DNA of 64,000 bases from Candidatus Bathyarchaeota archaeon. Its GTDB lineage: Archaea; Thermoproteota; Bathyarchaeia; Bathyarchaeales; Bathycorpusculaceae. The position numbers and the translations under genes are program-made. The notes beneath the pieces were generated by a model. The model saw nothing but the letters and a program-made list of their open reading frames with translations. It did not search any database and had not been told where the DNA came from. Location of the stretch: assembly GCA_963720565.1 (NCBI GenBank), contig CAVRFW010000005.1:96001-160000 (forward strand). Direction: 5' to 3'. Position 1 is the first letter of the stretch. Every line of letters begins with the position of its first letter. Shown here piece by piece: positions 41,271 through 46,017 of the stretch.

Positions 41271-41323
41271 CTCACGAACTCGTAAGAACCACAGGAATGT
41301 GCAAAATGCAGTAACGAATGAAA

Positions 41324-41405
41324 TCACAGTAATATCACAATGCCTGTGATATCATAGAATCACCAAATGCATGAACCGTGATGCTTTGTGACAAGTGATG
41401 TCACA
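41324..41405. repeat. TGTGA/TCACA array A
   Basis: Pentamers at 41324, 41335, 41345, 41387, 41401; near-palindromes TGTGATATCATA (41345) and AGTGATGTCACA (41394). Confidence 0.75.
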
Positions 41406-41840
41406 CTATTCAGAGGAGCCCTCTGAAATAGAGTTTTCTCTCCGAGAAACCAATCAAACGAAAGTCGAATAGATAAGAACGGCAGAAAGCGTGAAAACTT
41501 GATTAGCAAGCTCTTACGGAACAACTATGTCAGAAAAACGAAGAGGCTAACAAGTTTCAAACAGTCAAAACAAATAACTACCAATTAGAACGCCTTTCAA
41601 GTCCAATAAAAAACGTCAAAAAATACCTCTTATCAATATTATAACCCTAGAATCATTTCAAAACAATTAATAGCCACATTTCTAACCCTTTTTGCGAATT
41701 AAACCAAAATTATGAACTTTTCGATACTAAAATAGAGCTGAAGAGAGATTTTGGCCTGCTTTTTGGAGCCTACGAAAGATTTAAAGATGAAGCGCGTATA
41801 CAAAATTGTATGCATTTAACATTACCGAGGAGCAACGAAA

Positions 41841-42320
41841 ATGAAACTAAAAGAAGGCGTTCAAGCATGGCTAAATGGAGCATTAAGTGACCCCGTTGTC
41901 AAAATTCTCGCTAAAAATAGTCAATTAACAAGAACGCAACTCGAAACATTGCTCATAGACGTTTTAGCCGAGAATTTATCAAATAAACAGCTAAATTACG
42001 ACGAAAAAGCCAGATTAAGGCTAACAAACGCCAAAATAAGTCGCGGTGCCTTCAACAGGACATTAAAACAGTCAAAAGAAAATGTCATAAAATCGATCTA
42101 CACAGTTCTCCTTCTAGGCTACTTAGGCATCTTTGAAAGCACAACTTTAGACCCCTACATCGAGATAGCTAACAAATTACACGAGTACATTGAAGCTCAC
42201 AAAGGCAACCTCAATGAGGGTGAAGATACATAAGACCATCTAAAAGTCATTGATATCATCAGAAAGGAGCTAGAAACGAGCCTAAAACAGCTCTCAAGTC
42301 CATCAAAAGACACTCTGTGA
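41841..42320 (+). CDS. Uncharacterised HTH-like protein (in-frame TAA at 42231-42233; the frame stays open to TGA at 42320)
   Basis: LTRTQLETLL...YDEKARLR...ISRGAFNRTLKQ resembles a helix-turn-helix; 28 further helical codons follow the TAA. Confidence 0.7.
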
Positions 42321-42603
42321 CGTCACAAATCACAACTTTCAACGCAAGATAAAGCTCGTGAAAGCATAAGAACAAACAAGCCAAAATTCACAAACTAAAT
42401 ACCAAAATAAGCTTAAAACAAAGACATTCTCCACGACGGAATTTTCGGAAATTATTGGCATAGTTCCCTGCTCAACTGTGATATGTGATGTCATAGGTGA
42501 ATTTTCGAAGAAAGCACCATAAAACTTAAATCTTTACCATAAGACTGTGATATGTGATGCAACAAACTAGGTCACATACAAATCACAGAGGGGAATCTTG
42601 TGA
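42316..42603. repeat. TGTGA/TCACA array B
   Basis: Perfect palindrome TGTGACGTCACA at 42316-42327; exact 16-bp direct repeat ACTGTGATATGTGATG at 42475 and 42544; 11 pentamers in ~290 bp. Confidence 0.85.
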
Positions 42604-43313
42604 TTGAGCTCTCAGCAACACTCGTTATAGTGTTAATCTTGGTCACAATAGGAGCCTCGATAGAGTACTACAGGCAAATCCGAAAGACGCAAAGAGAATA
42701 TGAAAATGCCAAGAGCGCTGTTGAAAACATTGTTCTGAGTTTCAATAGAGAACTAAGAAGGGAAGCGGAAAGACTAGAGTTAGTAGCGTATAAGGTCGAG
42801 GGCAACAATGCTAGAGAAGACACCAACAGCAAGCGAATTGATTCAATCGAGATGAAAGTCGAGCCCTTGGAAAGTCTTCTTAGCGCGACATCAGAAAACA
42901 ATCAAGGCATTGTGTCGAAAGTCACCGAAGTCGATACTAAAGTGCAAGGACTCGAATTAGCCCAGGAGAGGCTAATAGCCAAAATCACGGGATTAGAGGA
43001 TGAAATGCAGAAATTCACATTCGCCCCTGAAATGAAGAGCGAGCCAGTTATGCCTATCAGAAGAGACAAGGCATTAGCGACATTGACTGAAACAGAGATA
43101 ATGGTGTTGGAAATGTTGTTATCTGAGGGCTCGAAAACGGCTCCTGAGATAAAAGAGAGAGTAGGACTCAGCAGGGAACATACCGCAAGACTGATGAAGA
43201 AACTCTATGAGGAGGGCTACCTGGAAAGAGAAACCGGTAAGATTCCATTCAGGTACAGCGCCAAACAAGAATTGGAAAAATTCCTAAAGAAGCCCGAAAA
43301 CCAACAGGCCTGA
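42600..43313 (+). CDS. Predicted membrane-anchored coiled-coil protein with C-terminal winged helix (MarR-like)
   Basis: N-terminal hydrophobic helix LSATLVIVLILVTIGA, long heptad-rich middle, LTETEIMVLEML...TAPEIKERVGLSREHTARLMKKLYEEGYLER. Confidence 0.85.
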   Translation: MIELSATLVIVLILVTIGASIEYYRQIRKTQREYENAKSAVENIVLSFNRELRREAERLELVAYKVEGNNAREDTNSKRIDSIEMKVEPLESLLSATSENNQGIVSKVTEVDTKVQGLELAQERLIAKITGLEDEMQKFTFAPEMKSEPVMPIRRDKALATLTETEIMVLEMLLSEGSKTAPEIKERVGLSREHTARLMKKLYEEGYLERETGKIPFRYSAKQELEKFLKKPENQQA

Positions 43314-44006: not shown

Positions 44007-44318
44007 TTCACAAGCTTTACACTTCACAACTTATAGCTGTTATGGTTAAATCAGCAGCAGTGAAAAGTCAATTTCAGTTCGGAAAAGATGAAATAGGCTG
44101 AATTTGCACTGTTTTCATAATTACAACCTTCACAAGAATCTGATTTCACCAAACAAATTCATGCTTTACTCAATTATGTATTTGCATTGGAAGCGTAGGG
44201 GGGTCTTCTTCACAGAAAAGGACCATAAAAATAGTTATTGTATTAGAAATAGAGGTTGAAATGAGGCAGTTTTATTGCAAATTCACACGGACTTCACAAA
44301 ATGTGAACAGTATGTGAT
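44007..44318. repeat. TTCACA/TGTGAA array C on the origin flank
   Basis: TTCACA at 44007, 44023, 44129, 44209, 44282, 44293; TGTGA at 44302 and 44313; palindrome TTCACAAAATGTGAA at 44293-44307. Confidence 0.7.
44181..44204 (+). promoter_or_regulatory. ORB-like element
   Basis: TTTGCATTGGAAGCGTAGGGGGGT (degenerate TTCCAnTGGAAA core plus G-string). Confidence 0.5.
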
Positions 44319-44447
44319 TTGAAGGGTTACATACACTATGAAAATAACAAAGTTAGAGTATTTAGAGCAAATGGGATGAAGATGCTAAAAAGTGTCAAAA
44401 TATGTAAGAATGTTCAAAGTCTTTCAATAGAATGGGATAAGACAGCC

Positions 44448-44468
44448 ACCCCTTCATTTCCTCTCGAA
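44448..44468 (-). promoter_or_regulatory. ORB element
   Basis: Minus strand TTCGAGAGGAAATGAAGGGGT. Confidence 0.7.
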
Positions 44469-44630
44469 AAGTTTCTGAGAAGAAGACAATAACAGGGTGG
44501 AAAAAAGATTAGTTGAGGATTATCTAAAAAAATGAATAACAAATACTTATTATATGCTCAGTGTTGCTTAGGCTTCAGAGTATATTTCCTATTAAAGGAA
44601 ATCATAACAAATTCTTAATAGTATAGTATA

Positions 44631-44652
44631 TTTCCAGTAGAAACTTTGGGGT
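44631..44652 (+). promoter_or_regulatory. ORB element
   Basis: TTTCCAGTAGAAACTTTGGGGT. Confidence 0.75.
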
Positions 44653-44799: not shown

Positions 44800-46017
44800 A
44801 TGGGAAGTCATAGCACAATTGATGGAATATTCGAAAATTTCGTGAAGAGTGCCCAACTATTTAGAGATCGAGAGGTACTCAGGCACGACTATCTTCCTGA
44901 AAGCCTGCCTCACAGAGAAGAGCAAATTAGGCTTCTAGGTGAAACAGTGGCGCCAGTTTTGAAAGACGCTCGTTGTTCAAACATTTTCATTTACGGCAAA
45001 ACAGGTACAGGTAAGACTGCTGTGACCAAATACGTTTTGGGTCATTTGGAGACGAAAGCAAAGGAGTACGGTGCGCCAGTTAGATTTTCTTATGTTAACT
45101 GCAGGATGACAGGGTCAGCGTATAGAGTTTTTGCAAGTCTTACCCAGAGTCTGGGGATGTCTGTTCCTTTTACGGGGTTGTCTGTGGGAGAAGTTTTTGA
45201 TAGGTTTCGAGGGAGATTGGATTCTTCCCGAACTAATTTCATAGCTGTCTTAGATGAGATTGATGCCTTGATAAAAGATCGCGGAGATAGCGTTCTTTAC
45301 GAGCTAACCCGGATTAATGAAGGTCTCAGCAAGAGCAAGTTTTCCCTTATCGGTATATCCAATGACCTTCGATTGAAAGAGTTTCTGGACCCGCGCGTTT
45401 TTAGTTCATTAAGCGAGGAAGAAATAGTTTTCAGACCTTATGATGCAAGCGAATTGCGGAACATTCTTCTTGAGCGTTCAAAGTTGTCCTTCCACGAGGG
45501 TTCTCTTTCCGATGCAGCTTTGAGCATTTGCTCAGCCTTAGCTGCGGCAGAACATGGAGATGCTAGGCGTGCTCTTGATTTATTACGTGTTGCAGGTGAG
45601 GTTGCTGAGCGACGAGGTTCGAAACTGGTTTCTGAAGAACATGTTAGAGAGGCAGAGAAGCATATTGAGCATGACAGAGTCGTGGAAGCGTTGAAGAATT
45701 TGACTTTGCATTCAAAGCTTGTGCTTCTTAGTGTTTACCGTTTGAGTAAGGCGAGTGCAACTACTGGTGAGATTTTTGATGTTTACAGTCAACTCTGTGG
45801 CGAACTGGGATCCGGGCTCCTTACTCAGAGGCGTCTTGGCACTTTAATTAATGAACTTGACTCGATGGGTCTTGTGAATGCAAAAGTCGTGAGTATGGGG
45901 CGGTATGGTCGCACAAAGAAGATTAGGCTTGAGATATCACGGACTCTTGTCAAGGATGTTTTCCACGGTGATGCTCGACTAGGGCGCTTCTTCGATCCTA
46001 TCCGTAATTCCCTTTAG
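44800..46017 (+). CDS. cdc6: Orc1/Cdc6 replication initiator
   Basis: LPHREEQI, YGKTGTGKT, VLDEID, HGDARRALDLLR, C-terminal wH with GRYGRT. Confidence 0.97.
   Translation: MGSHSTIDGIFENFVKSAQLFRDREVLRHDYLPESLPHREEQIRLLGETVAPVLKDARCSNIFIYGKTGTGKTAVTKYVLGHLETKAKEYGAPVRFSYVNCRMTGSAYRVFASLTQSLGMSVPFTGLSVGEVFDRFRGRLDSSRTNFIAVLDEIDALIKDRGDSVLYELTRINEGLSKSKFSLIGISNDLRLKEFLDPRVFSSLSEEEIVFRPYDASELRNILLERSKLSFHEGSLSDAALSICSALAAAEHGDARRALDLLRVAGEVAERRGSKLVSEEHVREAEKHIEHDRVVEALKNLTLHSKLVLLSVYRLSKASATTGEIFDVYSQLCGELGSGLLTQRRLGTLINELDSMGLVNAKVVSMGRYGRTKKIRLEISRTLVKDVFHGDARLGRFFDPIRNSL

Follow-up and report, generated by a model that had tools for sequence, protein, structure and literature searches.

A putative origin-side DNA anchor with a locus-confined candidate binding word in Bathyarchaeia

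The window, that is the whole 64,000-nucleotide stretch of a Candidatus Bathyarchaeota contig analysed here, contains a gene whose product combines a membrane helix, a probable coiled-coil stalk and a winged helix beside a predicted replication origin (Table 1). The surrounding genes are archaeal and include those for the large and small subunits of polD, orc1/cdc6, GGGP synthase, Elf1 and NAD synthase. The 80 best related loci, 78 of which are titled Bathyarchaeia/Bathyarchaeota or Bathycorpusculum and the others Thermoproteota and Nitrososphaerota, were found to keep a near-fixed order of upstream helix-turn-helix gene (78/80), the gene itself, convergent 147-aa winged-helix gene (76/80), origin and cdc6 (73/80). 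At the seven loci missing cdc6 the contig extends at most 3.8 kb downstream, and the upstream gene is likewise missed on short contigs.

Table 1. Features of the locus, in window coordinates.
Feature	Position	Strand	Basis or occurrence
Upstream array, six YGTGAY half-sites	41323..41405	.	75/75 loci long enough
Separate inverted repeat, TACA-N4-TGTA type, travelling with the upstream gene	41796..41813	.	58/78, strict pattern
Upstream helix-turn-helix gene, sigma-4/LuxR-like fold (weak match)	41841..42320	+	profile and model
Three-half-site element over conserved stop codon of upstream gene	42316..42334	-	78/78 loci
Promoter array	42477..42604	+	78/78 loci
Gene for membrane anchor / coiled coil / winged-helix protein	42600..43313	+	237 aa
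N-terminal membrane helix, residues 1-22, predicted N-out / C-in	42600..42665	+	hydrophobicity and charge
Heptad helix, residues 23-140, probable coiled-coil stalk	42666..43019	+	AlphaFold2 model and periodicity
Winged helix, residues 161-225, recognition helix signature REH..R	43080..43274	+	Pfam, model and alignments
Convergent uncharacterised winged-helix gene, 147 aa	43552..43995	-	usually adjoins ORB-like box
Variant half-sites, YGTGAA type, between 147-aa gene and origin	44007..44318	.	locus alignment
Predicted replication origin	44182..44652	.	ORB-like boxes 44182, 44447 (reverse), 44632; AT-rich 44470-44631
orc1/cdc6 initiator gene	44800..46017	+	TIGR02928, E 3.5e-123

Inverted ORB-like boxes at 44447-44468 and 44632-44652 bracket a 73% AT stretch beside cdc6, an arrangement that an alignment of 72 loci shows to be conserved. 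Over the 423-kb contig, the cumulative GC skew has its minimum at window position 42434. The gene ends 1.16 kb from the AT-rich stretch, in agreement with the first-pass annotation, which had placed it about 1 kb from the origin. The ORB pattern, a known consensus hand-fitted after viewing these loci, has 10 matches in the 2.09-Mb genome, of which this origin accounts for 3; the 64 kb surrounding generic winged-helix genes gave a single match. Of 32 distant gene-bearing loci, hand-picked from the matches at 1 to 4 per family code, 28 have an ORB-like box at 0.47-1.65 kb from the start of the gene and 4 have none nearby; of 8 further loci, 7 also have such a box (chance about 1.6%). The linkage to the origin holds where cdc6 has moved, and even where neither neighbour nor cdc6 is adjacent (L125, L127, L164) the gene keeps adjoining such a box.

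The neighbours were characterised as well. An inverted ORB-like box lies about 160-420 bases upstream of the 147-aa gene in most lineages, and this pairing holds without an adjacent cdc6 and without the membrane-anchored gene (L112-L182); the product is a candidate origin-accessory factor in its own right. Its identity with WhiP is unsupported, as judged from the range of its own profile rather than from a WhiP profile: 34 of 53 genomes matched, including none of the 11 from family codes f21, f27, f29, f14, f22, f42 and f26. The element ACCATAA, possibly a common BRE variant, stands just upstream of the TATA-like box in the promoters of both this gene and the membrane-anchored one (44030-44046 and 42516-42531). 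The upstream helix-turn-helix gene has an in-frame TAA at 42231-42233, leaving 130 aa here against 154 or more in relatives (59 of the 60 ORFs examined have at least 154), and the frame stays open and conserved to 42320, the TAA being either a real mutation or an assembly error. The inverted repeat at 41796-41813 is probably its own operator and resembles the Sulfolobus ucm word. The upstream protein was rejected as UBP, a beta-sheet saddle (PMC12141716): its model is all-helical and a PDB sequence search matched nothing. In 28 of 76 loci (e.g. L002:6718-9256, L046:5691-8259) a 2.6-kb insert with a divergent HerA-like ATPase gene and a NurA-like gene, unannotated and labelled from context, separates the gene from the 147-aa gene. 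A query found no HerA-like ATPase in this 88.8%-complete genome, and an FtsK-like pairing with it was discarded on the grounds that the ATPase gene is convergent and confined to those 28 loci. Elsewhere the genome has an SMC gene and eight ParA/MinD-like matches, none of them at the locus; FtsZ/tubulin gave no match at this completeness and one in a complete relative of the same order.

The reading frame of the anchor gene opens with GTG behind a GAGGGG ribosome site. Its product has a single hydrophobic segment, residues 1-19 (best 19-residue Kyte-Doolittle mean 2.5), followed by EYYRQIRK and a heptad-patterned stalk of 118 residues whose hydrophobicity repeats every 3.52 residues over 25-140. 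In the AlphaFold2 model a single helix spans residues 2-140, residues 142-155 form a linker of low confidence, and the winged helix occupies 164-229. The lone N-terminal helix and the heptad-like helix of about 120 residues noticed in the first-pass annotation are thereby borne out. One membrane segment is present in 79 of 81 aligned homologs and a second hydrophobic segment in none of the 81; no K/R precedes the segment in 76 of the 79, and K/R are more numerous after it than before it in all 79. Under the positive-inside rule, the positively charged flank of a membrane helix marks the cytoplasmic side. Because of this rule and the K/R distribution, stalk and head are placed in the cytoplasm as expected earlier, with N-out, C-in topology, and the N-terminal helix is predicted to be an uncleaved anchor, not a signal peptide. 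A cleaved signal peptide and an outward-facing head were rejected on the same charge distribution in the 79 homologs.

The head had been called MarR-like. A winged helix it is, in keeping with the structure matches, and MarR PF01047 scores above cut-off (residues 162-211, E 3e-7), but the best Pfam match is the TrmB helix-turn-helix PF01978 (residues 162-222, E 1e-9, 38.5 bits against a cut-off of 25.6), which was also found in 16 of 27 homologs. No curated NCBIfam family reached its cut-off with the 237-aa protein, and a PDB sequence search with the head profile returned nothing at E 1e-4; the stalk matched only generic coiled coils. The recognition helix is the best conserved part (0.86), and the distal stalk (0.25) and the membrane helix (0.31) are the least conserved; in the recognition helix, E193, H194 and R197 do not vary across 27 distant homologs.

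The DNA around the gene is marked by a short word, YGTGAY. TGTGA/TCACA density reaches its genome-wide peak at 42301-42600, with 10 occurrences in 300 bases against a mean of 0.48. The alignment of 79 loci resolved three elements TGTGA-N2-TGTGA-N2-TCACA together with 11-base-spaced half-sites around a BRE/TATA-like box, which was read by eye from the alignment at 42516-42531. The promoter array consists of elements at 42477-42495 and 42546-42564 and half-sites at 42571, 42582 and 42599, and the upstream array stands about 375 bases upstream of the closest TATA-like box. The overlap of the start codon with a TGTGA, pointed out earlier, exists here at 42599, but only 13 of 80 relatives have an in-frame GTG inside such a site. 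That arrays flank the gene in 78/78 close relatives is a new result of this analysis. The archaeal anti-SD reads AUCAC, and the word was considered as a ribosome-binding site; this was rejected because the word needs a pyrimidine before GTGA and occurs on both strands, in palindromes and mid-gene.

The word is confined to this locus. Clusters, defined as three or more half-sites, number only 8 elsewhere in 914 kb across the close-relative loci, and when the 1392 intergenic regions of this genome are ranked for the word, the three at this locus take the top 3 places. With a matrix built from the other 78 loci, the genome gave four sites scoring above 12 bits, every one of them here; two shuffles gave 0 and 5. 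Exact matches to the pattern number 2, 3 and 3 in three Bathyarchaeia chromosomes that are single contigs, all 8 at the locus; a fourth genome has no match and a fifth has one near the locus and one elsewhere. The predicted sites are confined to the origin side, and no dispersed regulon was found. The first-pass annotation had looked for binding limited to a few promoters unrelated to the origin as evidence against a tether; the predicted sites lie only beside the origin and some lie off promoters, although the strongest flank the gene's own promoter. Applied to five complete genomes from distant lineages, the three-direct-repeat pattern gave 3 scattered matches and failed to mark the locus, so that the spacing is not fixed there.

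Some arrays lie within coding sequence. An aminotransferase gene is present upstream in 22 loci, and the upstream array there falls mid-gene. Among the complete copies, 19 after exclusion of two truncated ones and one lacking a called ORF, codons V157, S165 and V167 are fixed in 19/19 and R166 in 18/19, against a mean of 0.60, and 3 of the 8 fully fixed synonymous codons among 192 columns lie in the 11-codon array stretch. The same element is intergenic in relatives lacking the aminotransferase. As read from these codons, the in-gene arrays are kept under synonymous constraint. Distant loci have 19 clusters inside ORFs, at least one of which may sit in an over-extended ORF start, against 0.5 after synonymous recoding. 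Single half-sites within ORFs outnumber those of the recoded control whether the gene is present (453 vs 335) or not (117 vs 93), so that clusters alone are discriminating. In f13 a half-site cluster was seen within the winged-helix coding sequence itself, at codons 135-170, in 4/4 loci (L112-L115).

Clusters follow the gene. Among the distant loci, the 380 kb that include the gene have 57 clusters, spread over 25 of the 32 loci (the other 7 have none), vs 1 in 99 kb without it (8 loci, 2 of them from genomes carrying the gene elsewhere). A second set gave 17 clusters in 99 kb with the gene (8/8 loci) vs 0 in 138 kb without it (12 loci, one ending at a contig edge). These are counts over kin loci, without a tree-based count of independent losses. 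Three relatives in the class (G068, G036, G256) have the two neighbours side by side, with no gene found and no cluster, and two of them visibly retain the upstream gene's own operator. Conversely, f33 and f44 have the gene and clusters, and no copy of either neighbour was found there. Wherever the word persists, the recognition helix is almost unchanged. Because arrays are absent where only this gene is missing and the neighbours are kept, the winged-helix head probably binds the YGTGAY word, as co-occurrence among kin suggests.

The gene is single-copy in this genome, and its family is broad. Among 4621 candidates, 4052 homologs were found at E<=0.001. In 300 sampled Thermoproteota genomes, strong matches were present in 39 of the 45 genomes of the same class and matches in all 45 of family code f13. 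Homologs extend across Thermoproteota, including cultured Nitrosopumilus (WP_109877579.1), and the proteins of the distant loci are named in their sources as Nitrosopumilus, Nitrosotenuis, Methanosuratincola and Culexarchaeum. The raw tally of 225/301 genomes overstates the range, because the weak matches in f21, f27, f29, f32, f42 and f26 lack REH..R and were set aside as generic winged helices. In several lineages the gene was not found, and it is thus dispensable there. Of the 32 distant homologs, 11 have the membrane helix and 21 (13 of 21 family codes) lack it, and many distant loci with a helix-less homolog keep half-site arrays. No common membrane partner gene was found beside the helix-less homologs at the 21 loci. 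The short amphipathic N-termini seen at four loci of f17 and f23 are at most suggestive. Next to the gene, 12 of the 21 loci (L116, L117, L120, L121, L124, L130, L159, L160, L164, L168-L170) have a helix-turn-helix plus CBS-like gene of about 190-280 aa, and 11 of the 21 have a 100-aa helix-turn-helix gene, both labelled by eye. Literature searches, mostly outside subscription journals, returned no paper on this protein family, and the supplementary regulator tables of PMC10269533 may include such proteins.

The architecture, the topology signals, the single copy, the origin linkage and the locus-confined word tracking the gene are computational results; the tethering of DNA to the membrane is what we infer from them. 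The best explanation, held with middling confidence, is that the protein is an origin-side, centromere-like, site-specific organiser or anchor, membrane-bound in Bathyarchaeia and Nitrosopumilus-like archaea and autorepressing. Paired stalks would form a coiled coil rising from the cytoplasmic side of the membrane, and each winged-helix head, on its flexible linker, would read one YGTGAY half-site; such a one-to-one reading would account for sites that differ in spacing and orientation. The arrays, extending over 1.3 kb at a distance of 1.9 to 3.1 kb from the unwinding element, might be loaded with many copies that hold or loop the DNA at the membrane, thereby helping to position the origin or to part newly copied origins. 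Sites over the gene's own promoter would lead to autorepression, as in partition systems whose centromere doubles as operator. The tether proposed in the first-pass annotation gains from the topology, the origin linkage and the predicted sites found only at the origin; it loses from the missing helix in 21/32 distant homologs and from the best-conserved elements, which flank the gene's own promoter and transcription start and count against an anchor.

Those promoter elements are the natural starting point of the leading alternative, plausible but less likely than the anchor, in which the protein is a membrane-bound transcription regulator dedicated to its locus, repressing its own promoter and tuning the neighbours by looping between main and auxiliary operators. 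The membrane helix would then take a signal or merely sequester, and proximity to the origin would reflect gene dosage or cell-cycle timing. The TrmB helix-turn-helix as best Pfam match and the existence of homologs without the membrane helix are in keeping with it, and operators inside genes have a precedent in lac O2. Elements immediately before the BRE/TATA box and across the start of transcription occupy the activating and repressing positions described for TrmBL1 (PMC4706686), and membrane-bound regulators are common in archaea, at about 4 per genome (PMC10269533). The latter source also describes such regulators with few sensory domains, and the earlier argument that the lack of an extracellular sensor domain speaks for a tether does not exclude a regulator. 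Against regulation, no target was found beyond the locus; the gene and its arrays stay next to ORB-like boxes even in loci that have lost both neighbours and cdc6; the upstream gene has an operator of its own, retained on loss of this gene; and in other lineages clusters are found as far as about 6 kb away. The in-gene sites fit a structural role and also auxiliary looping operators, and tilt toward the anchor.

It is improbable that the array complex controls replication initiation, sequestering the origin or setting its topology together with the 147-aa protein and so limiting Orc1/Cdc6 access or re-initiation. The close linkage to ORB-like boxes is as such a controller would have it, and an accessory origin-binding protein, UBP, is known from Sulfolobus (PMC12141716). 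Yet the ORB/AT-rich core is without any YGTGAY cluster, the HerA/NurA-like insert parts the arrays from the origin in 28/76 relatives, and ORB-like boxes and cdc6 are kept in relatives without the gene. Most improbable is another reader of the word (the upstream helix-turn-helix protein, the 147-aa protein or an unlinked one) with this gene as just one target: co-loss of sites and gene is also expected if the sites only regulated this gene, but arrays occur in the f33 and f44 genomes without either neighbour, the distant upstream array and the stop-codon element also vanish with the gene, and the recognition helix hardly varies where the word is kept.

The mechanism of chromosome positioning and separation is open for most archaea, even Sulfolobus, according to a 2024 review (PMC7617429). 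The locus supplies a protein together with predictions of the word it binds and of its place in the cell; with a homolog in cultured Nitrosopumilus, origin-to-membrane attachment in archaea becomes directly testable. If the protein is a regulator instead, a phylum-wide control circuit still sits at the origin. A wider form of the anchor reading, put forward tentatively and with less assurance than the anchor itself, is an ancient archaeal centromere and anchor of Bathyarchaeia and marine ammonia-oxidising archaea, in which a private origin-side array is pinned to the membrane, helix-less forms use a partner to get to the membrane or a cytoskeleton, and the RacA/RicO/RocS design has been reached by convergence in reverse order. 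Chromosomes would then be positioned without a motor in archaeal groups where no such route is described.

Several known systems share parts of this design. TrmB regulators carry a C-terminal sugar-binding domain, missing here, where the protein ends about 15 residues past the wing. MarR proteins have long C-terminal dimerisation helices after the wing, whereas only a 7-residue helix follows it here, and over the whole chain the top MarR structures superpose at an rmsd of about 15 A. Compared with ToxR/CadC and archaeal ArnR, the membrane helix comes first here, the stalk is long and nothing lies outside the membrane. Transmembrane regulators act on target genes in response to a signal; here predicted sites lie at the protein's own promoter, and no target gene was found beyond its locus. 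With a DNA-binding domain and a single membrane helix, the protein falls under the formal definition of that class (PMC10269533). The Thermococcales glycolytic motif of TrmB/TrmBL1, TATCAC-N5-GTGATA, has the half-site ATCAC in common with the word here, and TrmBL1 sites up- and downstream of the TATA box recall the present ones (PMC4706686). There is, in contrast, no fixed N5 palindrome and no dispersed regulon here, and a stalk and membrane helix are added.

The archaeal centromere binders AspA of pNOB8 and SegB of Sulfolobales have their site beside their own gene, and the candidate site here is placed likewise (PMC5120986 and 10.1101/2025.04.15.649018). Both work with a ParA-type ATPase encoded alongside and are without a membrane helix, whereas this locus lacks such an ATPase and the protein has a membrane helix. 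AspA is a winged helix found among the fold matches (4rs8, E 9e-4, rank 15), no better than many MarR/ArsR proteins, and SegB is reported as absent from Thermoproteota outside Sulfolobaceae.

A likeness is also seen to RicO, RocS and RacA of Firmicutes, although the present protein is archaeal. RicO and RocS join a small helix-turn-helix head, a coiled coil and a membrane attachment in one chain, as here (10.64898/2026.03.06.710092 and PMC11500499). According to the former, RicO binds both a motif near the origin and the membrane, and the RocS membrane helix is replaceable by unrelated transmembrane domains. RicO and RacA are described there as having a specific motif near the origin, and here the word is enriched at the origin with binding predicted. 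There is no motor at the loci of RicO, RocS and RacA, again as here. In these three an N-terminal helix-turn-helix precedes the coiled coil, whereas the order here is reversed, and RicO and RocS end in a C-terminal amphipathic membrane helix, in contrast to the N-terminal transmembrane helix of this protein. The first-pass likeness to RocS accordingly stands for head, coiled coil and membrane part in reverse order, but not for the helix, which in RocS is amphipathic rather than transmembrane (PMC11500499). RicO has nine sites spanning about 700 kb (10.64898/2026.03.06.710092), and the arrays here lie within about 1.3 kb. Pfam and NCBIfam scans of the protein and 27 homologs gave no match to the RicO, RocS or RacA families. 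Membership fails on domain order and anchor type; what the analogy suggests is a RicO-, RocS- or RacA-like mode of working, with no homology detected in those scans.
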